Shown here: piece after piece, positions 3,580 through 28,300 of the stretch
Layout: every line of letters begins with the position of its first letter
Position numbering within the stretch: the first letter of the stretch is position 1
Source: Patescibacteria group bacterium
GTDB lineage: Bacteria > Patescibacteriota > Minisyncoccia > Phycocordibacterales > UBA9973
Direction: 5' to 3'
DNA: 41,460 nucleotides
NCBI GenBank assembly: GCA_043818335.1
Contig: JBDRFV010000019.1
Span: forward strand, 1 to 41,460
The notes under the pieces: generated by a model
Databases searched by the model: none
What the model was told of the DNA's origin: nothing
What the model saw: the letters and a program-made list of their open reading frames with translations, nothing else
Program-made: the position numbers and the translations under genes

Positions 3580-5769
<2,190 letters not shown>

Positions 5770-5771
5770 AA

Positions 5772-7664
5772 TTATTTTTTCTCTTCAATTTCTTTTTTTA
5801 GTTTTTCTATAAAATCTTTAATAGAAATATTTTCTAATTTTTCCCCGCCTGCATCAGCTGTGTTGAAAGCATTGCGGGCAGGAGTTCTAGTTTCTACTGT
5901 TAGTTTTTCAGATTCTTTTTCTTTATCACCAATTACTATTACATACGGAATTTTTTGCATTTTTGCAGTACGAATTTTTTTACCCAAAGATTCATTTGAA
6001 GAATCTAATTCTACTCTAATATTTTCATTTTTTAATTCTTTATAAATTTTTTCTGCATAATCAGTTTGTTTTTCACTTATTGGAAGAATTACAACTTGCA
6101 CAGGTGATAACCAAAGAGGGAAGGCGCCAGCATAATGCTCTATCAAAACTCCCATAAATCTTTCAAACGAACCAAGAATTGCAACATGGAGCACAACTAC
6201 GCGATGTTTTTTGCCGTCTTCGCCTGTATAGTCCATATTAAAATTTTCTGGCTGGTTGAAATCAAGTTGGATTGTAGTTAGTTGCCATTCTCTGCCGATA
6301 GAATCTCTGACTTTTATATCAATCTTTGGTCCATAAAAAGCAGCTTCGCCTTCTTTAATTTCAAAAGGTACACCCCATTTTTTTACTGATTCTTCCAAGA
6401 TAGCTTCAGCTTTTTCCCAAATTTCATCTTTTCCAAAATACGCTTTTTTATTTTTTTTATCTCTAACAGAAATTTCTACTTTATAATTATTGAAACCAAA
6501 AATTTCATAGGTTTCGCGCATTAGACCAAAAATCATTTCAATTTCTGATTCAATTTGGTCTTCAGTAACAAAATGGTGAGTATCATCTTGAGTTATATTT
6601 TTAACACGCAATAATCCAGACAATTCTCCACTTTTTTCATTTCTGTATACAGTTGTATTTTCAGCTATTCTATATGGAAGATCTTTGTAACTATGAAGCT
6701 CAGAATTATAAATTTCAAAATGATGCGGACAGTTCATTGCTTTCATTACAAATTCATCACCGTTTTCATCTTTCATAACTGGCATCATGGCGTCATATTT
6801 TCCCATGTGACCACTTTTTATATAAAGTTCTTTTTTTGCAATATGTGGAATTGTTACAAAAGAATATCCTAGCGCTTCTTTTCTTGAGTAAATAAATCTT
6901 TCTAGCTCGTTTTTTATTATATTTCCTTTTGGTAAAAGCATTGGCAGACCTTTTCCTACTAATTCAGAAATTGTGAATAATTTTAATTCTTTTCCCAATT
7001 TTTTATGATCTCGTTTTTCTGCTTCTTCGCGCATTTTTTCATAATCTTCTAATTCTTTTTTATTTTCAAAAGCTAAACCGTAAATTCTAGTTAGCATTTT
7101 ATTTTTTTCATCTCCACGCCAATATGCACCAGCAACTCTATCTAATTTAAAACTGTCTGGATTTATCTCTTTTGTAGGATTTTCAGAATGTCCACCTCGA
7201 CATAAATCAGTAAACCCCGCCTTTGACGGGGCAAGCTCTCCAAAAGTGTATAAAGTAATTTTTTCCCTAAACGCTTCTTTAGAAGCGTCGGGCGATCCAG
7301 CTTTGCTGGATTTAGCCTCTTTATCTTTTATCTCTTTTATTAATTCTGTTTTGTATTCATTATCAGCGAAATATTTTAGCGCTTCTTTTTGTGTTTTTTC
7401 TGAGACTTTAAAACTTTTCCAGCTTTTCAAAATTTCTCGCATTTTCTTTTCAATTTTTGGCAGATCTTTATCAGAAATAGGGGATTTAAAATCAAAATCA
7501 TAATAAAAGCCATTTTCAATAACTGGGCCGATAGTGACTTTAGTTTCTGGATATAAATTTATTACGGCAGTTGCTAAAAGATGCGCAAGTGTGTGTCTAA
7601 TATTGTGTAGTTTTTCATTTGTTTCCATAAGTTTAATAATATCATATTCTTTTGCTTTTTTCAT
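5772..7664 (-). CDS. thrS: threonine--tRNA ligase (no N-terminal TGS domain)
   Basis: It has the editing-domain HxxxH (HNIRHTLAHLLA), GPVIENGFYYDF, DLCRGGH, a class II core and an anticodon-binding C-terminus (PLWLSPVQVVILPIS). The protein starts directly at the editing domain. Confidence 0.95.
   Translation of the reverse strand: MKKAKEYDIIKLMETNEKLHNIRHTLAHLLATAVINLYPETKVTIGPVIENGFYYDFDFKSPISDKDLPKIEKKMREILKSWKSFKVSEKTQKEALKYFADNEYKTELIKEIKDKEAKSSKAGSPDASKEAFREKITLYTFGELAPSKAGFTDLCRGGHSENPTKEINPDSFKLDRVAGAYWRGDEKNKMLTRIYGLAFENKKELEDYEKMREEAEKRDHKKLGKELKLFTISELVGKGLPMLLPKGNIIKNELERFIYSRKEALGYSFVTIPHIAKKELYIKSGHMGKYDAMMPVMKDENGDEFVMKAMNCPHHFEIYNSELHSYKDLPYRIAENTTVYRNEKSGELSGLLRVKNITQDDTHHFVTEDQIESEIEMIFGLMRETYEIFGFNNYKVEISVRDKKNKKAYFGKDEIWEKAEAILEESVKKWGVPFEIKEGEAAFYGPKIDIKVRDSIGREWQLTTIQLDFNQPENFNMDYTGEDGKKHRVVVLHVAILGSFERFMGVLIEHYAGAFPLWLSPVQVVILPISEKQTDYAEKIYKELKNENIRVELDSSNESLGKKIRTAKMQKIPYVIVIGDKEKESEKLTVETRTPARNAFNTADAGGEKLENISIKDFIEKLKKEIEEKK
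7215..7236. repeat. GC-rich hairpin element in frame in thrS
   Basis: CCCCGCCTTTGACGGGGCAAGC has a CCCCG/CGGGG stem. On the minus strand it encodes the extra ..ELAPSKAG.. just before the conserved FTDLCRGGH. It shares GGGCAAGC with the elements at 22650 and 23020. Confidence 0.6.
7271..7311. repeat. Second GC-rich double-hairpin element in frame in thrS
   Basis: Two perfect 7-bp stems, ACGCTTC-TTTA-GAAGCGT and ATCCAGC-TTTG-CTGGAT, are joined by CGGGCG. It encodes ..SSKAGSPDASKEAF... Confidence 0.55.
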
Positions 7665-13504: not shown

Positions 13505-15805
13505 ATGCGACTTAAGAATCTTGAAATTAACGGTTTTAAATCTTTTGCTAAAAAAACTAACTTGGAATTTCAAAGTCCAATTGTTTGTGTTGTTGGACCA
13601 AATGGATCTGGAAAATCAAATGTAGTTGAAGCTGTAAGATTTGTTCTTGGTGAGCAGTCCATGAAATCAATGCGTGGAAAAGCTGGGGCCGATCTTATTT
13701 TTAAAGGTTCTAAATCTTTTTCAAAAAGTTCTCGCGCTTCTGTAATTATTTATTTAGATAATAAAGATAAAATTTTTAAGCTGTCTAATGAAATGGGAGA
13801 AAATATTAATTTGAATTTTGATACTATTTCTATTTCTCGTGAAGTTTATTCTGACGGGATAAATAAATACATGCTAAATGGCACGGAAGTTAGATTAAAA
13901 GATATAAATAATTTATTAGCTTCTGTGAGTATTGGTTCCTCTGGACATCATATCATTTCTCAAGGAGAATCAGATAGAATTTTAAATGCTTCACCAAAAG
14001 AGAGAAGGGAAATGATTGAAGATGCTTTGGGTCTTAAAATATATCAATACAAAATAAAAGATGCAGATAGGAAACTAGTTAAAACTAGTGAAAATATGCG
14101 GGAAGTTTCTTTATTAAGAAGAGAGATTTTGCCACACTTAAATTTTCTAAAAAAGCAGGTTGAAAAATTTGAAAAAGCTAAAGAAATGAAAATAGATTTA
14201 ACTAATCTATATCATGAATATTTAAATAAAGAGGATACTTATTTACAAAGTGAGCAGAAAAACTTACATGCAGAAAAAAGCAAAATTTCAAGTGAGTTAA
14301 ACAGCATTTCTAATTTAATTTCTGATAAAGATGATGATCAAAAAATAGAAAAAGAAAGTAAGCATAAAAAAGAATTAGAAAATTTAGAACAAAAAGTTTC
14401 TCAAATTCGTATTGCAAAAAGTGAAATAGAAAGAAAACTTGGAAGAATAGAAGGGATGATTGAGTTAGAAGAAAACAGAAAACCAGCTAATCAGGAAGTT
14501 CAAAAAGCTAAAAGTTCAAATGTATCAATAAATAAAGAAGAATTAGAATCTTTTTTGAAAGAAGCCCATGAATATTTAGAAGAAGCCATGTATATTGATG
14601 TTTTAGAGAATATCGCGCCTCTTTTGGGTAAGATAAAAGATATTTTAGATAGATTTGCTAGAAATTTTGAATACAGAAGTCAGCCTCAAGATAACTATAA
14701 TAATACAGTTTCCAGTGTTAATTTAGATGAATTAAAAAATACACAAGAAGCGATTTTAGTTCAAATGAAAGAGATAGAACAAGAAGAAAAAAAGATTTCT
14801 GAAACTATGCAAATTTTAAAAGATAAAATATCAGAAGAGTTAGAATTAGATCGAGATAAAGAAAGAGAAAAGTTTAATCTAAAAGTAAAACATCAGGAAT
14901 TATCTTCTGCTTTACAAATAATTTTAGTAAAAGAAGAAAATATAACAAAAGAAAAAGATTATTTTGAGAATGAAATAAAAGAGGGAAGCATTTTAGCTGG
15001 TTCTGAGATTTTAGGTTACAAGAATTTTGAAATAGTAGGTTTATTTGATAGAAGTTCTCAAGAAATTTTAAAGAAAAAAATAGAAAGAATTAAAATAAGA
15101 TTAGAAGATGCTGGTTTGGGTGGTGGAAGTGAAGTTGTGAAAGAATTTCAAGAAATTTCTGATAGAGAAAAGTTTCTTACTAAAGAAATGGAAGACTTAT
15201 CTGCAAGCGTAGAATCTCTTAAGAAATTAATGGCAGATTTGAAGAGCAAGATAGATTCTGAATTTAAAGAGGGCATAGAAAAGATTAATATAGAATTTAA
15301 AGAATTTTTCTCGCTTATGTTTAATGGCGGGACTGGTTCTTTGAAAATAGTTTCTGAAGTTAAAAGAAAGAAAATTATAGAAATAGAAGATGAAGAAGAA
15401 CAATCTGAAACAGAATTAGAATTAGAAATAGATGAAGATGAAGTTCCAGAGCAGGGAATTGAAATTAATGTTTCTTTGCCACATAAAAAAGTTAAAGAAC
15501 TAAACGCACTTTCTGGTGGAGAAAGATCTTTAACTTCTATTGCGCTTCTTTTTGCGATGTCTCAAGTAAATCCACCGCCATTTTTAGTGCTAGACGAAAC
15601 TGATGCTGCTCTTGATGAAGCTAATTCTAGAAAATATGGTGATATGCTAGAAAAACTTTCTAAACATTCTCAACTTGTTGTTGTAACTCATAATAGGGAA
15701 ACTATGTCTCGTGCTGATGTTTTGTATGGTGTTACTGTTGGTTCTGACGGTGCTTCTAAGCTTTTGTCTGTAAAGTTTGATGAAGCTACGGCTATTGCGA
15801 AATAA
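13505..15805 (+). CDS. smc: SMC-family chromosome condensation ATPase, shortened (766 aa)
   Basis: The N-terminal head is RLKNLEINGFKSF..GPNGSGKSNVVEAVRFVLGEQSMKSMRG. The C-terminal head is LSGGERSLTSIALLFA..PPFLVLDETDAALDEAN..VVTHNRETM..VLYGVTV. Only about 375 aa lie between the head and the joint, and no canonical Gly-rich hinge is visible. Confidence 0.85.
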   Translation: MRLKNLEINGFKSFAKKTNLEFQSPIVCVVGPNGSGKSNVVEAVRFVLGEQSMKSMRGKAGADLIFKGSKSFSKSSRASVIIYLDNKDKIFKLSNEMGENINLNFDTISISREVYSDGINKYMLNGTEVRLKDINNLLASVSIGSSGHHIISQGESDRILNASPKERREMIEDALGLKIYQYKIKDADRKLVKTSENMREVSLLRREILPHLNFLKKQVEKFEKAKEMKIDLTNLYHEYLNKEDTYLQSEQKNLHAEKSKISSELNSISNLISDKDDDQKIEKESKHKKELENLEQKVSQIRIAKSEIERKLGRIEGMIELEENRKPANQEVQKAKSSNVSINKEELESFLKEAHEYLEEAMYIDVLENIAPLLGKIKDILDRFARNFEYRSQPQDNYNNTVSSVNLDELKNTQEAILVQMKEIEQEEKKISETMQILKDKISEELELDRDKEREKFNLKVKHQELSSALQIILVKEENITKEKDYFENEIKEGSILAGSEILGYKNFEIVGLFDRSSQEILKKKIERIKIRLEDAGLGGGSEVVKEFQEISDREKFLTKEMEDLSASVESLKKLMADLKSKIDSEFKEGIEKINIEFKEFFSLMFNGGTGSLKIVSEVKRKKIIEIEDEEEQSETELELEIDEDEVPEQGIEINVSLPHKKVKELNALSGGERSLTSIALLFAMSQVNPPPFLVLDETDAALDEANSRKYGDMLEKLSKHSQLVVVTHNRETMSRADVLYGVTVGSDGASKLLSVKFDEATAIAK

Positions 15806-15810
15806 TTTTT

Positions 15811-15900
15811 TCTCCTCCTTTTTGAGGAGGAGTGCCCGAAGGGCGAGGTGGTGATTTTAATTACCACCCCCAACCCCCTCCCTTGTTAAGGGGGAGGGGA
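15811..15900 (+). repeat. GC-rich multi-hairpin repeat, copy 1
   Basis: It contains four hairpin modules: CTCCTCC-TTTTT-GAGGAGGAG, GCCC-GAA-GGGC, GGTGGTGATTTTAATTACCACC and CCCCTCCC-TTGTTAA-GGGGGAGGGG. Blocks of 27 nt and 44 nt are identical to copy 2. Confidence 0.9.
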
Positions 15901-15947
15901 ATAAAAATCACTTATTTCTCAAGTGATTGAACCGTTACTTTTTACTA

Positions 15948-15976
15948 TTGACTTTTTAGCTCAAATTATATATTAT
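15948..15976 (+). promoter_or_regulatory. putative sigma-70 promoter
   Basis: TTGACT-17 nt-TATTAT lies upstream of the ORF at 16049. Confidence 0.4.
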
Positions 15977-16048
15977 AAAAACAAGAAAATTCACTCGAGT
16001 ATAAATTAGAAAGAGTGGATAAAATCTGCTCTTTTAAAATTCTAAAAA

Positions 16049-16285
16049 ATGAGAACAGTGATAATATTTTGGATTGGTTTATCGGTTTTTTTAACCGGAT
16101 TTTTTGGTGGAGTTTTTAGTTTTGTCTTGAGCACGGAGAGTTTAAACTCCACGTTACGGTTATGCATTTTATCTACAGGTCTAAGTGCAAGGGATATTTT
16201 TCTTGTCTCACTTTCAGTCCTAGTTTTGGGATTCTTATTTATCATCATAGCATTCTATAAAATGTTATGTAAAAATGATATGTAA
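16049..16285 (+). CDS. small hydrophobic membrane protein (hypothetical)
   Basis: 78 aa with 2-3 hydrophobic helices. It has a promoter-like motif upstream and a strong terminator 27 nt downstream. Confidence 0.45.
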   Translation: MRTVIIFWIGLSVFLTGFFGGVFSFVLSTESLNSTLRLCILSTGLSARDIFLVSLSVLVLGFLFIIIAFYKMLCKNDM

Positions 16286-16311
16286 ACATGTTATACATAG
16301 GTTAATTTATT

Positions 16312-16342
16312 CCGTTGCGGCTTTCGTTGCAACGGTTTTTTT
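16312..16342 (+). terminator. rho-independent terminator
   Basis: CCGTTGC-GGCTTTCGTT-GCAACGG is followed by T7. Confidence 0.75.
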
Positions 16343-16356
16343 ATTACATTTTTATC

Positions 16357-16453
16357 TCTCCTCCTTTTTGAGGAGGAGTGCCCTGAGCTTTGCGAAGGGC
16401 GAGGTGGTGATTTTAATTACCACCCCCAACCCCCTCCTTGAAAAGGAGGGGAG
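16357..16453 (+). repeat. GC-rich multi-hairpin repeat, copy 2
   Basis: It has the same modules as copy 1 in the same orientation. It carries a 10-nt indel (TGAGCTTTGC, 16384-16393) and a different terminal loop. Confidence 0.9.
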
Positions 16454-16476
16454 TAAAATGCAATAACCCCCTAAAT

Positions 16477-16522
16477 CCCCCTTGTCAGGGGGACTTTTAT
16501 TTTTTCCTCCCCTGACAAGGGG
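16477..16522. repeat. GC-rich inverted repeat
   Basis: The 14-nt CCCCTTGTCAGGGG within CCCCCTTGTCAGGGGG (16477-16492) is the exact reverse complement of CCCCTGACAAGGGG (16509-16522). It is related to the terminal module of copy 1. Confidence 0.75.
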
Positions 16523-16577
16523 AGGTTAGGAGGGGTTTGATTTTATAAACAGCCCTTATTTTCCAAGCTATTTAAGC

Positions 16578-16606
16578 TTGACTTTTCTATTTATACATGC
16601 TATACT
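16578..16606 (+). promoter_or_regulatory. putative sigma-70 promoter
   Basis: TTGACT-17 nt-TATACT lies about 130 nt upstream of the ORF at 16736. Confidence 0.5.
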
Positions 16607-16658
16607 ATGCAGGTATTTAGTACGTTAAAAAACCCGTATTTTTTAGTTTTAATAAATA

Positions 16659-16708
16659 GTGAATTGTCTTAAGTTATTAATTAATTTTGATGATTTGGGA
16701 CAATTCAC
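16659..16708 (+). promoter_or_regulatory. 10-bp perfect inverted repeat in the 5' leader of ORF 16736
   Basis: GTGAATTGTC and GACAATTCAC are separated by 30 nt. Confidence 0.4.
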
Positions 16709-18969: not shown

Positions 18970-20952
18970 CTAAATTAAAATATAATCTATAGTTTTTCTT
19001 TCTAAATCAACGTCTTTAACTTTTATTTTTACTGTGTCTCCTATTTTATATCTTTTTTTATTTTTCTGTCCTACTAGTTCAAACTTTTTCTCATCAAAAC
19101 TATAAAAGTCATCTTTTAGATTTCTAAGCTGTATTAAACCTTCACATTTTGTTTCTTTTTCTTCTACATATATTCCCCATTTTGTAACACCACTTATTAT
19201 TCCATCAAAATTTTGACCAATTCTTTCTGACATATACTCTACCTGCTTGTATTTTATAGAAGCTCGTTCTGCGTCTGATGCTTTTTTTTCTTGTTCAGAA
19301 GATTTTTGTGAAATTTTTTGGTAGCTTTCTAATTTATCTTTTGTAATTTTTTTACCGGATAAATAATCTTGCAAAAATCTATGCACTACTATGTCTGGAT
19401 ATCTTCTAATGGGTGAAGTAAAATGTGTGTAATATGCAAAAGCTAAACCGTAATGTCCGATATTTTCAGTAGAATAAATTGCTTTTGCCATGGATCTAAT
19501 TACAGCTTTGCTGATAGTTTCTTGTTCGTTTTTACCTTTTAATTTTTCTAAAAGTTTATTTAATTCTTTTGGTGGGATTACACCGTTTTTCATTGGCAAA
19601 TTATGCCCCATGCCTTTTAGAAATAAAGTTAAATCATGCATTTTTTCTTTACTTGGCAAGTCGTGAACTCTGTATACAAAAATTCCTTCTTCTTGGCCCT
19701 TTTTTGTACCTTTTGAAATAAGTTCAGCTACTTTCTTATTAGCTAAAAGCATGAATTCTTCTATTAATCTATTAGAATCACCTCTGATTTTTTTTATAAC
19801 TTTAATCGGCTTTCCATCTTTATCTAAAACAAATTTTACCTCTTCTTGATCCAAAGACATTGCACCGTGCTCAAATCTTTCTTCTGTTAATTTTTTAGCT
19901 AGATTATTTAAAATAGCTAGTTCCTTGTGATAAGCTAACTTGTTATTTTTGATAGCATCTTCAGCTTCTTGATAAGTAAAACGTTTTGCTGAGTGTATTA
20001 CAGTTTTTCCAAACCATTCTGATTTTATTTTTGCATTTTTATCTAAAACAAAAACCGCGCTCATTGTTAGTCTGTCTTTATTTGGAACTAAAGAACACAA
20101 GTCATTAGAAAGTACTTCTGGAAGCATTGGAATTGTTCTGTCTACTAAATAAACAGAAGTCGTTCGCCCTTTTGCTTCTTTGTCTAATTCACTGCCAGGT
20201 TTTACATAATTAGAAACATCAGCAATATGTATGCCTATTTCATATTCACCACCCCCAACCCCCTCCTTAGAAGAGGAGGGGAGTTTTCGAAATGAAATAG
20301 CATCATCGAAATCTTTTGCGTCTTCTGGGTCAATAGTGAAAGTTAAGGTTTTTCTAAAATCTTTTCTATTTTTATAATCTTCTGAACTTATACCGTTTTC
20401 TTTTATAATTTTTGCTTCTTTTTCTGCAGATTCAGATAAGGAATTGTCGAAACCTTTTTCAAGTGCAATAGCGTGCATTTCGGTTTCATTTTCTCCAGGA
20501 TTTCCAATTATTTTTTTTACTTCCCCGATTGGATTTCCTTGACTGTCTTTCCAAGAAATTATTTTCACAAAAACTTTCTGTCCAATTTCTGCATTATTTA
20601 ATTTATTTGGATCAATAAAAATATCAGCATACATTTTTATGTCATCTGGAACTAAAAATATATTTTTTTCTATTTTTTTTAAAACCCCAACAAAGCCATT
20701 TTTTGCTCGGGAAATTATATTCACAACTTTTCCAATTTCGCGACCACGTTTTTTGGAAAGCAATTCTATTTTTACTAAATCGCCATTTAATGCAGTATTA
20801 AGATGATTAGAATCAATTTCTATATCTATTTCTTTATTTTCTAAAGTTACATAGCCCATTCCTTTGCTATTTACAGAAATAACCCCTTCGAGTTTTTGCC
20901 TGCTGTTTTTGTTGGTTTTGTTTTTATTATTAGTTTTTTTCTTTTTTGCCAT
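18970..20952 (-). CDS. rnr: ribonuclease R
   Basis: It has the RNB core (DPEDAKDFDDAISF, HIADVSNYV, YLVDRTIPMLPE, HYGLAFAYYTHFTSPIRRYPD), a C-terminal S1 domain and a Lys-rich N-terminus. Confidence 0.9.
   Translation of the reverse strand: MAKKKKTNNKNKTNKNSRQKLEGVISVNSKGMGYVTLENKEIDIEIDSNHLNTALNGDLVKIELLSKKRGREIGKVVNIISRAKNGFVGVLKKIEKNIFLVPDDIKMYADIFIDPNKLNNAEIGQKVFVKIISWKDSQGNPIGEVKKIIGNPGENETEMHAIALEKGFDNSLSESAEKEAKIIKENGISSEDYKNRKDFRKTLTFTIDPEDAKDFDDAISFRKLPSSSKEGVGGGEYEIGIHIADVSNYVKPGSELDKEAKGRTTSVYLVDRTIPMLPEVLSNDLCSLVPNKDRLTMSAVFVLDKNAKIKSEWFGKTVIHSAKRFTYQEAEDAIKNNKLAYHKELAILNNLAKKLTEERFEHGAMSLDQEEVKFVLDKDGKPIKVIKKIRGDSNRLIEEFMLLANKKVAELISKGTKKGQEEGIFVYRVHDLPSKEKMHDLTLFLKGMGHNLPMKNGVIPPKELNKLLEKLKGKNEQETISKAVIRSMAKAIYSTENIGHYGLAFAYYTHFTSPIRRYPDIVVHRFLQDYLSGKKITKDKLESYQKISQKSSEQEKKASDAERASIKYKQVEYMSERIGQNFDGIISGVTKWGIYVEEKETKCEGLIQLRNLKDDFYSFDEKKFELVGQKNKKRYKIGDTVKIKVKDVDLERKTIDYILI
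20247..20283. repeat. copy of the intergenic repeat's terminal module, in frame inside rnr
   Basis: CACCACCCCCAACCCCCTCCTTAGAAGAGGAGGGGAG compares with ACCACCCCCAACCCCCTCCTTGAAAAGGAGGGGAG at 16419-16453. On the minus strand it encodes ..PSSSKEGVGGGE... Confidence 0.85.
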
Positions 20953-21734: not shown

Positions 21735-21749
21735 ATTAAAGAATTTTAA

Positions 21750-21776
21750 CCCTCGGGCATAGCCCACGGGCGAGCC
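21750..21776. repeat. GC-rich element (CCCTCGG...ACGGGCNAG family)
   Basis: CCCTCGGGCATAGCCCACGGGCGAGCC aligns at about 20/27 with the trmD-internal element at 23020. Confidence 0.65.
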
Positions 21777-21782
21777 AAAAAG

Positions 21783-22688: not shown

Positions 22689-23387
22689 ATGATAAAATTT
22701 CACATTATTACTATATTCCCAGATATGTTCAACTCTTATTTGAATGAGTCTATTATTGGGCGGGCGATTAAGAATAAAAAAATATCTGTTAAATTCTATA
22801 ATCCACGAGATTTTATAAAAAATAATAAAAATAAAACTGGTTACAAACCTGTTGATGATAAACCATACAGTGGCGGACCGGGAATGGTGATGAAAGCTGA
22901 GCCGATTTTGAAAGCAGTAGAAAAAGCTGTTAGTAAAATAAAAAATAAAAAGAAAATTTTAATTATAAATTTTGTGCCCAGTGCTGAAAAATTTACTACT
23001 GATTTCGCGAAAAAAGTTTCCCTCGGCCATGGCTCTACGGGCAAGGCTAAAAAATATACTGATATTATTTTAATCTGTGGCAGATATGAGGGGATAGATG
23101 CGCGAGTTGATAAAATTTTGAAAACAAAAAAAATATCTATTGGTGATTATGTTCTGACTGGTGGGGAAATTCCAGCGATGATTTTGGTTGATTGCATTTC
23201 TCGGCAGATTAAAGGCGTTTTGGGTAAATATGAAAGTTTAGAAGAAGAGAGAATTTCTAGTAGTGAAGTTTACACACGACCAGAAATTTTAAAATATAAA
23301 AATAAGAATTATAAAGTGCCTAAAGTTTTATTGTCTGGGCATCACAAAAATATAGAGAATTGGAAGAAAAATGAAAAACGAAACTAA
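22689..23387 (+). CDS. trmD: tRNA (guanine37-N1)-methyltransferase
   Basis: Motifs IITIFPDMF, DDKPYSGGPGMVM, CGRYEGIDARV and GDYVLTGGEIPAM. Confidence 0.92.
   Translation: MIKFHIITIFPDMFNSYLNESIIGRAIKNKKISVKFYNPRDFIKNNKNKTGYKPVDDKPYSGGPGMVMKAEPILKAVEKAVSKIKNKKKILIINFVPSAEKFTTDFAKKVSLGHGSTGKAKKYTDIILICGRYEGIDARVDKILKTKKISIGDYVLTGGEIPAMILVDCISRQIKGVLGKYESLEEERISSSEVYTRPEILKYKNKNYKVPKVLLSGHHKNIENWKKNEKRN
23020..23047. repeat. GC-rich element in frame in trmD
   Basis: CCCTCGGCCATGGCTCTACGGGCAAGGC encodes the extra ..SLGHGSTGKA.. just before the conserved ILICGRYEGID. Confidence 0.65.
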
Positions 23388-25341: not shown

Positions 25342-28300
25342 ATGCACAAAGAAACAAAACGTCCTAAGAAGTATTTTTCTAGATATAAGAAGCCGCTAAT
25401 AGAATTTCCTAATTTAATAGAGTCGCAATTAAAATCTTTTGAATGGTTAGTTGAATCTGGCATAAAAGAAGTTTTGAAAGAATTTTCTCCAATAGAAGAT
25501 TATTCTGGAAAAAAGTTTCAGCTTGATTTAACTTCTTTTTCTGTTGAAGAACCAAAGCATGATGAAAATTCTGCAAAAATAAATAAAACTTCTTATCAAG
25601 GACTTTTAAAAATTCGTGTAAAGCTAACAAATAAAATTTTAGGAACTGTTAAAGATCAGGAGATTTTTATGTCTGAACTTCCTTTAATGACTTCGCATGG
25701 AACTTTTATAATAAACGGAGTAGAACGTGTGATAGTTCCACAGCTTGCTCGTTCTTTCGGTGTATTTTTTACAGAGTCTGAAAATAAAGGAAAAAGATTT
25801 TTTGGCGCAAAAGTTATTCCAGCTCGTGGGGTTTGGATTGAAATAGAATCAGAAGCTGATGGTGCAATTTATGTTCGTATAGATAAAAAAAGAAAATTCC
25901 CAGTAATTTCTCTATTTCGTGCGATGGGATATTTAAAAGATGAAGAAATTTTAAAAGAATTTTCCGCCAAAGGCGGATCCGCCTCCGGTGGAAAAGGTAA
26001 TTATGAAGAAATAATAAATATATGTTTAGCTAAAGATTCTGCTAAAACTCCAGCAGATTCTTATGTTGAAATATATAAAAGATTAAGAGACGGTGATATG
26101 GCTACAGCAGACAATGCTAAGGAATTTATTAATTCTTTATTTACTTCAGAAAGATATGATTTATCTCCAGTTGGTAGATTTAGATTTAATAAAAGATTTG
26201 AGAAATCAATGGAAGAAGTTGAGTTAGCTCGTCGTACTATTTCTAAAGAAGATTTAGTTAGTATTATAAAAAACATTATTGATTCTAATAATAATCCAGA
26301 TACAAGAGCTGATGATATAGATCACTTGGGACAAAGAAGAGTTCGTTTTGTTGGAGAAATGCTTCAACAAAAAATCAGAACCGGAATTATGCAGATTAAA
26401 AGAAATATTCAAGATAGAATGTCTATTATTGATGTTGATACTGCAATGCCAATTCAGATTATTAATCAAAGACCATTGCAAGCAAGAATAAAAGAATTTT
26501 TTACTACAAATCAACTTTCGCAGTTTATGGCACAGGAAAATGTGCTTTATGAAATGGAACATTTAAGAACTCTTTCAGCTCTTGGGCCAGGAGGTTTAAC
26601 TCGTGAAAGAGCAGGTCTTGAAGTTCGTGACGTGCATCCTTCTCATTACGGAAGAGTTTGTCCAATTCATACTCCAGAAGGACCAAATATTGGACTTATT
26701 TTGCATTTGGCTACTTATGCGAAAATAAATGATTTTGGGATTATTGAAACGCCTTATGTAAAAGTAAAAAACGGTAAAATTACTGGAGAAGTTCAGTATT
26801 TAAATGCACTTGAAGAAGAAAAATATAATATTACTCATGCTGGTATCTCTTATGATAAAAATGGAAAAATAACAGACGAAAGAGTTCCAGCTAGAATAAA
26901 AACTGAACCTGGGATGATTTCTAAAGAAGAAGTTGATTTTATAGATGTTGCTGCTAATCAGGCATTTTCTATCGCAACTTCTATGATTCCGTTTTTAGAA
27001 CACAATGACGCGAATAGAGCATTGATGGGATCAAATATGCAGAAGCAAGCTGTTCCATGTGTTCTTACAGAGATGCCACTTGTTGCTACTGGAATGGAAG
27101 AACTTACAGCTCGTGATTCAGGAAGATTAGTAATTGCACAAGAAGATGGTGTTGTTTCTTATATAGACGCTAAAAAGATTATAGTAAAAGGTAAAAAAGA
27201 GAAAACCTATGATTTAATTAATTTTTTAAGAAATAATAATTTTTCTGCTTTTCATCAACGTCCAATTGTTAATATGGGTGATAAAATTAAAAAGGGAGAT
27301 GTGATAGCTGATACTTCAAGTACTGTGGATGGACAGATTTCTATTGGACAAAATGCTTTTGTTGCTTTTCTATCTTGGTCTGGATCTAATTATGAAGATG
27401 CTATTATTGTTTCTGAAAGACTAGTAAAAAACAGTAAATTTACTTCTATATATTTAGAAGAATTTATTTGTGCAGTTCGTGATACAAAACTTGGACCAGA
27501 AATTACTACTCGTGATATTCCAAATGTTGGAGAATTAAAATTAAAAGATTTAGATGAAGATGGAATAATCCGTATTGGAGCAGAAGTTAGAGAGAATGAT
27601 ATTTTAGTTGGTAAAATTACACCAAAAGGTGAAACAGAATTAACACCAGAAGAAAGATTACTCAGATCTATTTTTGCGGAAAAAGCTCGTGACGTAAAAG
27701 ATACTTCATTAAGAATGGAGCATGGAAAACGCGGGCGTATTATTGGTGTAAAGATTTTTTCTCGTGATTTGGGGCATAGCCTAGAAGTTGGAATTATTAA
27801 AAAAATTATTATAGAAGTTGCACAGATAAGAAATATTTCAGTTGGAGATAAATTGTCAGGACGTCATGGAAATAAAGGTGTTATCTCGACTGTTTTACCA
27901 GAAGAAGATATGCCATACATGGCAGATGGAACACCGATAGATATTATACTTTCACCACTTGGTGTGCCTTCTCGTATGAACTTGGGACAGATTTTAGAGA
28001 TACATTTGGGCTTGGCTGCTGAGAAATTAGGCTATCAAGCTATTGTGCCATCTTTCTTGGGTGCGACTCATGACGAGATAAAAGAAGAATTAAAGAAAGC
28101 TGGAGTTCCAGAAAACGGAAGAGTAAAACTTTTTGATGGAAGAACTGGAGAAGATTTTAAACAAGATGTTGCAGTTGGTTGTATGTATATGTTAAAACTT
28201 CACCATATGGTTGAAGATAAAATACATATGCGTTCTATTGGGCCATATTCTCTTATTACACAGCAACCGCTTGGAGGTAAAGCTCAAGGTGGAGGTCAGA

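Follow-up and report, generated by a model that had tools for sequence, protein, structure and literature searches.

The gene for RNase R in the window (the entire 41,460-nt stretch of DNA analysed here) very probably carries 36 nt from a GC-rich palindromic repeat, a single arm that was gained recently, locally and in frame; the repeat would be a small, non-autonomous, REP/REPIN- or MITE-like element dispersed through this Patescibacteria (Paceibacteria-type) genome of ~30% GC. "Protein-coding palindromes" were at first a Rickettsia peculiarity and later included scattered intragenic REPs in a few phyla; they now extend to Patescibacteria/CPR bacteria, whose tiny genomes have little spare DNA and yet harbor palindromes in frame. 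The repeat family is apparently undescribed so far. The literature on the exact sequence, on CPR MITEs and on GC-rich in-frame palindromes held no account of the element, and a blastn comparison with a plasmid collection gave no match. At the gathering score, Rfam recovered only tRNA from the whole window, with no family at the repeats, and no family at 15 cross-phylum loci; the sub-threshold matches of an E-value scan of 15700–16700 were noise. A protein-database search with the doubled element peptide returned only three matches, its word index probably being poor on low-complexity queries.

The host gene is intact. The ORF at 18970–20952 on the minus strand encodes a 660-aa RNase R with Pfam domains OB_RNB, CSD2, RNB and S1, in the order expected of the enzyme (OB/CSD, CSD2, RNB, S1). 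The RNB match (E 1.2e-109) covers profile positions 1–325 of 326, the best PDB match is RNase R of B. subtilis (8cdu, E 4e-127), and the protein is 86% identical to its homologue P0002. The source entry for the identical protein reads 'ribonuclease R [Patescibacteria group bacterium]'. Catalytic motif I (DPEDAKDFDDA) and IHIADV are both kept in the uninterrupted frame, and D208, D214, D216 and D217 are invariant in an alignment of 40 RNase R sequences.

The stretch at 20247–20283 reads CACCACCCCCAACCCCCTCCTTAGAAGAGGAGGGGAG on the plus strand. Its element-derived part, a solo left arm of 36 nt at 20248–20283, is coded on the minus strand as L224–G235, LPSSSKEGVGGG, in the context FRK LPSSSKEGVGGG EYEIGIHIADV, between DPEDAKDFDDAISF and IGIHIADV. 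A sequence-only reading of this DNA had already placed the stretch on the opposite strand, between two RNB motifs, and the translated ORF confirms this. The sense-strand layout is CTCCCCTCC-TCTTCTAA-GGAGGGG-G-TT-GGGGGTGGT, a GC-rich hairpin with a G-rich tail that corresponds to hairpin D and its tail, one arm of the intergenic four-hairpin element. The insert is ~69% GC, as opposed to ~30% for the gene, and folds as RNA at -25.4 kcal/mol (z -3.05). The same reading had likened the stretch to the 3' module of the repeats at 15863–15900 and 16419–16453, except for the loop, and the resemblance is not a matter of chance: with at most one mismatch, the 20-mer CACCACCCCCAACCCCCTCC occurs in the window at three sites only (15862, 16418 and 20247) and in none of 100 dinucleotide-preserving shuffles, so that none would be expected at random. 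Hairpin D and its tail are thus found three times within 41 kb. The RNase R copy most resembles hairpin D with the tail of the second intergenic copy (16418–16454), from which it differs only at the first base and in the hairpin loop (AGAAGA as against GAAAA).

About 11 extra residues had been claimed for this segment, but the correct figure is eight: the spacing from DFDDAI to IHIADV is 21 residues in the window protein and 13 in its nearest relatives, and alignment with B. subtilis RNase R (8cdu) leaves a clean 8-residue gap at the insert. Where the closest relative, L001, has four codons (LDNS), the window has twelve that derive from the element. Unfilled, the site reads in L001 TTT CGA GAA TTA GAT AAT TCA GAA TAC and the window TTT CGA AAA (36 nt) GAA TAT, so that, compared with L001, the event resembles a 12-nt replacement rather than a clean insertion. 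The added residues sit at the tip of the beta-hairpin that joins RNB motif I (DxxxxxDFDDA) to IHIADV. In the AF2 model, strands 217–223 and 237–244 lie on either side of the loop and pLDDT falls below 50 at residues 229–233, so that the insert lies in a loop of low confidence, a location that the sequence-only reading had proposed to examine by modelling; judging from the model, the lengthened loop is probably disordered. If the insert is translated, EGVGGGEYEIGIHIADVSNYVKPGSELDK is an example of the tryptic peptides to be expected.

Two full-length copies of the element occupy intergenic DNA in the window, both with the G-rich strand on the minus strand. The first (15812–15899) starts 6 nt past the stop codon of the ORF at 13505–15805. 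Read on the plus strand, it consists of hairpins A (15812–15832), B (15834–15844) and C (15847–15868), a CCCAA linker and hairpin D (15874–15899), and as single-stranded DNA it forms four hairpins at -25.5 kcal/mol (z -4.6). The second (16358–16453) has a longer hairpin B and is part of a 42-copy alignment (as 'wini'). Next to it, a second GC-rich palindrome family is represented by an inverted pair (16466–16541, AACCCCCTAAATCCCCCTTGTCAGGGGG ... CCCCTGACAAGGGGAGGTTAGGAGGGGTT), recovered by an inverted-repeat search and built alike, with a C5/G5 hairpin, an AT spacer and a G-run.

Dozens of copies are present in related low-GC contigs. The full element, of ~90 nt, is an imperfect inverted doublet, with a left arm followed by an inverted right arm. 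The left arm comprises a CCCCTCC/GGAGGGG hairpin and then GTT-GGGGGTGGT; the right arm comprises ACCACC(T/C)CGCC, a short hairpin and then a C(T/C)CCTCC/GGAGG(A/G)G hairpin. The 42-copy alignment yields a four-hairpin consensus, although part of the apparent stem invariance is forced by the regular expression with which copies were collected. Compensatory changes are seen in hairpin A, where one pair is UA in 30 copies and CG in 12 and never mismatched, and also in hairpin B. Upstream of the hairpin, the consensus in intergenic Patescibacteria copies is aTTTTAg. Among 110 cross-phylum sequences, the tag was AAAG in 20, ATAG in 15, TTAG in 12 and GTAG in 6; AG is conserved and strict GTAG is in the minority.

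Under a strict definition, 23 of 44 full-length copies on low-GC contigs lie inside long ORFs. Removal of duplicates left 22 coding copies to compare with 21 intergenic ones; several of the former occupy orthologous sites and are hence not independent samples. The G-rich strand is the sense strand in every coding copy and the antisense strand in none (binomial p 5e-7, an optimistic value since orthologous sites are included). Seven of 21 intergenic copies contain an in-frame stop, against 0 of 22 coding copies (p 0.004), and the right-arm frame GTPPxxGG is used by 20 of 22 coding and 7 of 21 intergenic copies (p 1e-4), both p values being optimistic for non-independent copies. The 22–23 coding copies, from more than 12 host families, have a peptide in common, (A/L)P(L/S)LxxEGVGGGNSKNHHLALKGTPPQQGGE. 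Pfam confirmed TsaD, FtsK, UvrA, TopA, MurI, LigA, Tgt, PolA, UvrC, MnmA and a PaaX-like protein as hosts, and one further host (P0121) is UvrB by source name only. The hosts are strikingly often nucleic-acid enzymes.

When did the arm enter RNase R? The nine closest relatives (P0002–P0010, 72–86% identity) all have the canonical empty loop, and in a neighbor-joining tree of 120 homologues, for which the insert was masked, the window protein joins them as the sole filled member of the clade. The segment is therefore not a general feature of RNase R orthologues, as the alignment proposed in the sequence-only reading might have revealed. Since a single gain explains the tree more parsimoniously than three or more exact losses would, these data show the insert to be a recent, local gain. 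Over the whole tree, ~40 of the 120 homologues have an element-derived insert at this loop (full-length, left-arm, right-arm or internally deleted), a count made by manual reading of the listed inserts; a script's own classes were 54 empty, 37 short, 4 full and 25 other. The full 93-nt element occurs at the RNase R site in L002, L176, L178 and L187. That in L002 (GCA_023267435.1) is whole and in frame and reads TCA where both intergenic copies in the window read TAA; the earlier proposal, that one element occurs in both non-coding and translated DNA, is upheld by this locus. At least three element variants have been found at the site: the T-type, the C-type and the CTCTCC family, and L304 has a sister family there, CCCCCTCTCC..GGAGAGGGGGCTAGGGGGTGAGG. 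Clusters of homologues such as P0033–P0063 retain decayed versions of the insert, LPSFKGKEGAGGGGDE. The patchy variety of forms at a single site indicates repeated events. Transfer of the insert from a filled allele on a long recombination tract is ruled out by a sliding-window comparison, in which nucleotide identity to L001 is 0.8–0.9 up to both insert edges.

Could the insert be old instead, having entered once in an early Paceibacteria ancestor and descended vertically, with gene conversion from dispersed copies and many precise losses, including those in P0002–P0010? The same site is filled in many distant lineages, the decayed versions in P0033–P0063 demonstrate that persistence is possible, and Y1/HUH-type systems (IS200/IS605) do excise precisely. 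However, at least three independent losses would each have had to restore the canonical 13-residue loop, the site holds at least three different variants, and the empty loops consist of ordinary conserved RNase R sequence (ELxNxEYEIG) of the length found in B. subtilis, so that an old insert is unlikely. It is scarcely credible that a chimeric junction or misassembly put the repeat into the RNase R contig. Repeats do cause misassemblies, the contig is metagenome-assembled, and the identical protein is a single member sequence on one contig and is absent from the gene-position index. On the other hand, the insert measures exactly 36 nt, keeps the frame and has no stop, both flanks continue the same gene at the identity to L001 given above, and a chimera would not swap four codons for twelve and then rejoin the gene. 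Independent assemblies of other samples, moreover, carry either the full element at the same codon or the same arm, the latter in L004, which has the same boundaries as the window copy and comes from a separate assembly and another sample.

On the recent-gain reading, a copy entered RNase R after the split from relatives of 81–86% identity. Read along the G-rich strand in the EGVGGG frame, as the pattern among coding copies suggests, the element would contribute no stops and a Pro/Ser/Gly-rich peptide, so that the host ORF stays intact, and RNase R would tolerate the translated insert as a loop eight residues longer. Selection would purge copies with another orientation or reading frame, as well as those at sites that do not permit an insert, and this filter would account for the finding of open, sense-strand copies alone within genes. 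The solo arm may be an internal deletion of a full doublet or the insertion of a singlet. For RNase R, the insert is most likely neutral or close to neutral. It is highly improbable that the insert goes untranslated, whether by translational bypassing of the kind represented by mitochondrial 'byp' and T4 gene 60 or by removal from the mRNA. A stable GC-rich hairpin in an AT-rich message would suit bypassing, and yeast mitochondria, also AT-rich, are known to have GC-rich bypass elements; but all 22 coding copies are open and in the host frame, while a third of the intergenic ones contain stops, and one frame is strongly favored. The open frame and the frame preference count against bypass, since they would be needless if ribosomes skipped the element. 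Removal from the mRNA would call for ligation after excision, which is not known to occur in bacteria. Co-option is likewise improbable, either of the RNA hairpin as a regulator of RNase R expression (for example, by autoregulation) or of the Gly-rich loop in substrate handling. RNase R degrades structured, REP-bearing RNA, the E. coli enzyme acting on REP-containing mRNAs, and the site and the peptide recur across lineages. The hosts are also often nucleic-acid enzymes, as are those of intragenic REPs (PMC3733652), but this bias may be trivial, because CPR genomes consist mostly of information-processing genes. The closest relatives do without the insert, the loop is predicted to be disordered, and the many unrelated inserts of varied length in this one loop suggest tolerance rather than function.

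How might an element of this kind spread? Probably, to judge from its structure, via its hairpins as single-stranded DNA, which would be handled by a hairpin-recognizing enzyme such as a Y1/HUH RAYT-like transposase. A conserved (T)AG 5' of the hairpin, the lack of a target duplication and cleanly empty sites would fit Y1/HUH-type handling. There is no Y1 homologue in the window, and in ~300 fetched loci only two Y1_Tnp genes were found (L305 and L184), adjoining RNase R in two relatives. The L305 gene has ACTCAGCCTTGCTGGGT on its upstream side and ACTCAGCAAGGCTGAGT downstream, and the L184 gene has GTCAACCTGSCAGGTTGAC; these palindromes differ from the element, and a RAYT link through these two loci was dropped. 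Nor did any gene-sized interval clearly bounded by inverted arms, as expected of a parent IS or autonomous element, appear among the ~300 loci. Neither a target-site duplication nor an exact insertion boundary emerged from the copies, which have no consistent direct repeat beside them. In L001 the empty site contains an AT palindrome, GAATTAGATAATTC, which was considered as a target and rejected, as it is missing from L305.

For the same RNase R loop to be struck in many lineages, the element would have to prefer certain targets, or selection would have to leave very few sites open to it. A 26-nt hairpin-plus-tail core also recurs across phyla, and its cross-phylum identity, together with the reuse of one codon position, points to a targeting or mobilization mechanism not yet described. 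It is possible, if doubtful, that the core (T)AG-CCCCCTCC-loop-GGAGGGGG-TT-GGGGGTGG defines one horizontally spreading superfamily of ultra-small mobile elements in Patescibacteria, Nostocales, Sphingomonadaceae, Cytophagales, Chloroflexota and others, inserting without duplication, directed by hairpin or loop, and "homing" time after time to the same surface loops in conserved enzymes of information processing. If so, the elements would keep supplying CPR bacteria with lineage-specific protein loops and be a major source of them. Essential genes house about half of the copies sampled (among them those for RNase R, TsaD, UvrABC, with UvrB by source name, PolA, LigA, TopA, FtsK, Tgt and MnmA). 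The copies explain odd Gly/Pro-rich insertions in CPR proteins, and such loops are to be expected in annotation and structure modelling. In uncultured lineages the elements are also natural markers of recent DNA mobility. The RNase R tree, in turn, forms a dated series that begins with the fresh insert and ends with decayed loops specific to a lineage, along which one can follow selfish DNA as it turns into protein sequence.

By analogy, the element is the Patescibacteria counterpart of the Rickettsia palindromic elements (RPEs), which are said to have been reported by Ogata et al. in 2000 and 2002, and of intragenic REPs. In-frame intragenic palindromic repeats are well established for RPEs (PMC10969869), which likewise are dispersed palindromes of a reduced, AT-rich genome, situated both in intergenic DNA and in frame in unrelated housekeeping genes (PMC10969869). 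In both cases the encoded peptide is conserved and tolerated in surface regions, and a transposase is known for neither. The sequences, however, are unrelated, and the Patescibacteria element has a different architecture and lacks the CGTC tag of RPEs (PMC3733652), making it an analogue rather than a member. RPEs are also larger (~100–150 bp, as against ~90 nt made up of four short GC-rich hairpins), whereas the present element is found in genes as half-elements too, with the same codon position patchily filled across a gene tree.

With REPs and REPINs (Bertels & Rainey 2011; Di Nocera et al. 2013), including intragenic REPs that bear GTAG or CGTC tags, it shares short, GC-rich, imperfect palindromes with an unpaired (T)AG at the 5' edge (PMC3116915, PMC3733652) and the occurrence of singlets and of inverted doublets able to fold into a longer hairpin. 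REP singlets and dimers also occur in frame, notably in UvrABCD, PolA, ligase and RNA-enzyme genes (PMC3733652). It differs from them in its tag, TTAG or, in cross-phylum relatives, N(T/A)AG instead of strict GTAG, in that no RAYT is flanked by its palindrome at the two Y1_Tnp loci examined, and in its share of intragenic copies, which make up about half of those sampled, far above what is described for REPs; its peptide matched none of those of published intragenic REP families. Like MITEs, the element is small, of non-coding origin, bounded by inverted arms, multi-copy and at times fused in frame to ORFs, but each arm is itself palindromic, and neither a target-site duplication nor, in limited sampling, a parent IS with the same ends was detected. 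Yeast mitochondrial GC clusters are GC-rich hairpins that spread in AT-rich DNA and occasionally into coding sequence (var1), and small dispersed repeats (SDR) of Nostoc were reportedly described by Elhai et al. in 2008. Both differ from the present element in sequence and host, while resembling it as GC-rich hairpins in AT-rich genomes, at times nested in the loops of other hairpins; the Nostocales matches of the core are themselves located in the loop of a larger hairpin.

The RNase R gene of this contig contains 36 nt of a selfish palindromic repeat: a solo arm that has recently become fixed, in frame, in a loop able to tolerate it. The insert is in all likelihood translated and close to neutral. 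Nor is the case a one-off: an apparently undescribed family, resembling the Rickettsia palindromic elements (RPEs), is present in many essential genes of CPR bacteria of the Paceibacteria type.

The sequence-only reading had pointed to a 37-nt stretch that repeats an intergenic module and is read on the opposite strand within RNase R; the observation is real and its interpretation right. The stretch, CACCACCCCCAACCCCCTCCTTAGAAGAGGAGGGGAG (20247-20283, + strand), shares its first 20 bases with only two other places in the 41.5-kb window (sites 15862, 16418 and 20247, at most one mismatch) and with none of 100 dinucleotide-preserving shuffles of it, and differs from 16418-16454 only at the first base and in the hairpin loop. 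The insert is about 69% GC, against about 30% for the window. The surrounding ORF (18970-20952, - strand) has the complete RNase R domain set in Pfam (OB_RNB, CSD2, RNB with E 1e-109, and S1), and the identical database protein is named ribonuclease R (Patescibacteria group bacterium). On the sense strand, the insert (CTC CCC TCC TCT TCT AAG GAG GGG GTT GGG GGT GGT) lies in frame between the motifs and encodes LPSSSKEGVGGG, flanked by DPEDAKDFDDAISFRK and EYEIGIHIADV. The inter-motif spacing is 21 residues versus 13 in close relatives, and aligning the protein with B. subtilis RNase R (PDB 8cdu) opens a gap of 8 residues at the insert; the suspected excess of residues exists, but it is 8 net, not about 11. 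The insert folds stably in the mRNA, into a hairpin of -25.4 kcal/mol (z -3.05). The RNase R copy is the left arm of the repeat alone.

The full-length repeat is found in two intergenic copies, 15812-15899 (copy 1) and 16358-16453 (copy 2), and the same DNA does exist both as non-coding and as coding sequence, as had been proposed. Each copy has four GC-rich hairpins, which on the G-rich strand run from D (CTCCCCTCC-loop-GGAGGGG) through a GTT linker to C (GGGGGTGGT-loop-ACCACC), B (GCCC-loop-GGGC, variable and longer in some copies) and, last, A (C(T/C)CCTCC-loop-GGAGG(A/G)G); the left arm is D plus the G-rich tail. As single-stranded DNA, copy 1 folds at -25.5 kcal/mol (z -4.6). The four-hairpin structure was also returned by RNAalifold from an alignment of 42 copies from the window and related low-GC contigs. 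In hairpin A one pair has changed in a compensatory way (UA 30 times, CG 12 times, never mismatched), and hairpin B has several such changes. The invariance of stems D, C and A is partly by construction, because copies were collected with a regular expression that demanded parts of these stems; the paired changes are not so affected. The left half (D, GTT and G-run) and the right half (ACCACCNCGCC, B and A) are imperfect reverse complements, which makes the whole element an inverted doublet comparable to a REPIN, or to a MITE whose ends are palindromes. Intergenic copies have the consensus aTTTTAg before them and AAAAAt after them. Copies 1 and 2 are direct repeats 556 nt apart (15812-16453). 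Copy 1 starts 6 nt past the stop codon of the ORF at 13505-15805, and the stretch between the copies contains a small, very hydrophobic ORF of 78 aa (16049-16285) and, at about 16313-16345, a hairpin resembling a terminator.

When did the arm enter the gene? The best 120 RNase R homologues were compared. The nine closest (P0002-P0010, 72-86% identity) are without the segment, having the canonical 13-residue loop (e.g., SFRELDNSEYEIG). In a neighbor-joining tree of the 120, made with the insert masked, the window protein is the sole filled member of a clade with these nine empty relatives, a distribution better explained by a single gain than by at least three exact losses. The closest empty site, in the relative's locus L001, reads TTT CGA GAA TTA GAT AAT TCA GAA TAC, and the window has TTT CGA AAA, the 36 nt and GAA TAT. 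Nucleotide identity between the two genes is 0.8-0.9 right to both insert edges, so the insert did not come in with a long tract recombined from some distant allele. The insert is a recent, local gain in the window lineage.

In an AlphaFold2 model of the window protein, built on 40 homologues (mean pLDDT 76), residues 224-236 form the loop connecting strands 217-223 and 237-244, with pLDDT < 50 at 229-233. From this placement, the insert is predicted to lengthen the turn of the beta-hairpin following catalytic motif I. Many of the 120 homologues have other insertions, of 6-30 residues, in the same turn, in support of its tolerance.

Over the rest of the tree, the states of this loop are scattered. 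The whole element is present in frame in RNase R of the related loci L002, L176, L178, L187 and L240 (about 31 residues, e.g., LPSSNEEGFGGGNSKNHLALSGTPPQQGGE), and solo left arms with boundaries identical to the window's are seen, as in L004. The loop is also occupied by solo right arms (RPPRPSGTPPSQGE), by forms with an internal deletion (...GGGKGGEEF), by a sister family (L304, CCCCCTCTCC..GGAGAGGGGGCTAGGGGGTGAGG) and by unrelated inserts. Subfamily differs among the full-length copies, L002 having the T-type and L178 and L187 the C-type, and the TAA codon of both window intergenic copies is TCA in the L002 RNase R copy. One ancient insertion, homogenized by gene conversion and repeatedly lost, is the weaker alternative for this distribution; the scattered forms, differing subfamilies and TCA codon together argue for repeated events at one permissive, perhaps preferred, site. 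The reason for such recurrence, and the mechanism of mobilization, are what we infer.

Metagenomes were scanned for a pattern of D-tail plus hairpin C, which matched at least 120 loci. Among the matches listed, the full element is common in low-GC contigs, and 23 of 44 strictly defined full-length copies are within long ORFs (22 after duplicate removal, the set used in the tests). Besides RNase R, Pfam-confirmed hosts are TsaD, FtsK, UvrA, topoisomerase I, glutamate racemase, NAD-dependent ligase, Tgt, DNA polymerase I, UvrC, MnmA and a PaaX-like protein, and one hit is called UvrB by its source. The coding copies have the common peptide (A/L)P(L/S)LxxEGVGGGNSKNHHLALKGTPPQQGGE. Among the matches listed, the G-rich strand is the sense strand in all coding copies, with 0 antisense (p 5e-7), the EGVGGG frame has stops in 0/22 coding versus 7/21 intergenic copies (p 0.004), and the right-arm GTPPxxGG frame is found in 20/22 versus 7/21 (p 1e-4), although independence is overstated in these tests because the coding copies include orthologous sites. 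The orientation bias arises because the opposite strand of the consensus has stops in every frame. The direction is clear: genic copies are filtered for an open, tolerable frame, as expected if translated. Some proteins hold more than one piece: topoisomerase I of L169 and L234 has a solo right arm (HHPAQKGTPPQVGGEK) plus the full element, UvrA of L161 and L207 also carries SHSPLLRGEKKGG (L161 additionally GPPPSLPLVKGEGKS), and a single protein of L143 has several element-derived stretches, including SPSPKLRGGLGRGAEFTPSQPPPYKGGGE. The pattern also caught ten very AT-rich contigs (L136, L146, L154, L162, L167, L174, L201, L218, L220 and L232) that end with GGGGATT-type telomere-like repeats, then G/C-rich tracts; these are probably from rumen eukaryotes and unrelated to the element.

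How does the element compare with known systems? Its closest analogues are the RPEs, about half of which are in-frame fusions to housekeeping ORFs (PMC10969869), and the REP singlets and dimers that Di Nocera et al. reported within genes of Opitutus, sphingomonads, Xanthomonas and others, especially those for UvrABCD, RecBCD, PolA and ligase (PMC3733652). REPINs are inverted REP doublets, presumably mobilized by RAYT Y1 transposases (PMC3116915). The element acts like an RPE or an intragenic REP, and is filed as such, outside the RPE families. Like REPs and REPINs, it is palindromic, comes as a doublet and conserves an AG or TAG at its 5' edge, but its tag is TTAG or N(T/A)AG, not strict GTAG. 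The two Y1_Tnp genes found in related contigs (L305 and L184) have other flanking palindromes, and membership in the GTAG-REP/RAYT system is at most putative. Such IS200/RAYT-like genes adjoin or neighbor RNase R in L305 (3273-3929, directly upstream), L184 (5034-5687) and the contig of homologue P0094. Those of L305 (ACTCAGCCTTGCTGGGT / ACTCAGCAAGGCTGAGT) and L184 (GTCAACCTGSCAGGTTGAC) each have their own palindrome; REPtron-like units therefore exist, with different repeats. No target duplication was found at the copies, no parent element among the fetched loci, and no match to Rfam families or, for the peptide, to those of published families. Literature searches yielded no description of the sequence, or of MITEs or palindromic repeats in CPR bacteria.

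The hairpin-plus-tail core extends further. One genome per species (596 Gb) was scanned for GAGGGGNTTGGGGGTGG, giving at least 132 matches, and in 110 of the 132 listed the upstream flank, which is not part of the query, is the complementary C-rich arm, making up the same core as in the Patescibacteria element. Chance could give the 16-base matches (a few hundred expected in 596 Gb) but cannot account for the matching arm. The core (L005-L124) is (T/A)AG-CCCCCTCC-loop-GGAGGGGG-TT-GGGGGTGG. In Nostocales it lies within the loop of a larger repeat of about 85 nt, and in Sphingomonadaceae and Cytophagales (Spirosoma) it forms inverted pairs; other hosts among the matches listed are Chloroflexota, Ignavibacteriales, Clostridia, Campylobacter and Paceibacterota. 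Candidate readings are horizontal spread of one superfamily, a shared mobilizing enzyme, or convergence. In Nostoc the core reads GGGGAGGGGGTTGGGGGTGGGG, which is also a G-quadruplex motif of the textbook kind. In L117 (a 37% GC genome), a copy at about 1922-1945 ends right at the start codon (GGGGGTGGTATGAAAGAC...) of a gene that resembles xerC/xerD by eye; the tail of the copy may therefore serve as the ribosome-binding site or interfere with it.

Within the window, a second family of GC-rich palindromes follows copy 2 directly, as an inverted pair (16466-16541; AACCCCCTAAATCCCCCTTGTCAGGGGG / CCCCTGACAAGGGGAGGTTAGGAGGGGTT) of the same build, with a hairpin, an AT spacer and a G-run. This makes the intergenic region a BIME-like cluster of such modules. 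A further GC-rich module occurs once between genes (21749-21781; CCCTCGGGCATAGCCCACGGGCGAGCCAAAAA) and once, about 80% alike by eye, inside the ORF at 22689-23387 (23020-23050; CCCTCGGCCATGGCTCTACGGGCAAGGCTAAAAA, read as SLGHGSTGKAKK), which looks like a TrmD gene from its position beside those for S16 and KH; if so related, the two copies would represent another repeat family both non-coding and coding. Long ORFs also have short islands of at least 70% GC, versus 30% for the genome, at 998-1036, 5484-5528, 7213-7236 and 25963-25993. Some of these form hairpins (CCCCGCCTTTGACGGGG; TCCGCCAAAGGCGGATCCGCCTCCGGTGGA), and the four may represent insertions, in frame, of other elements or of older date.
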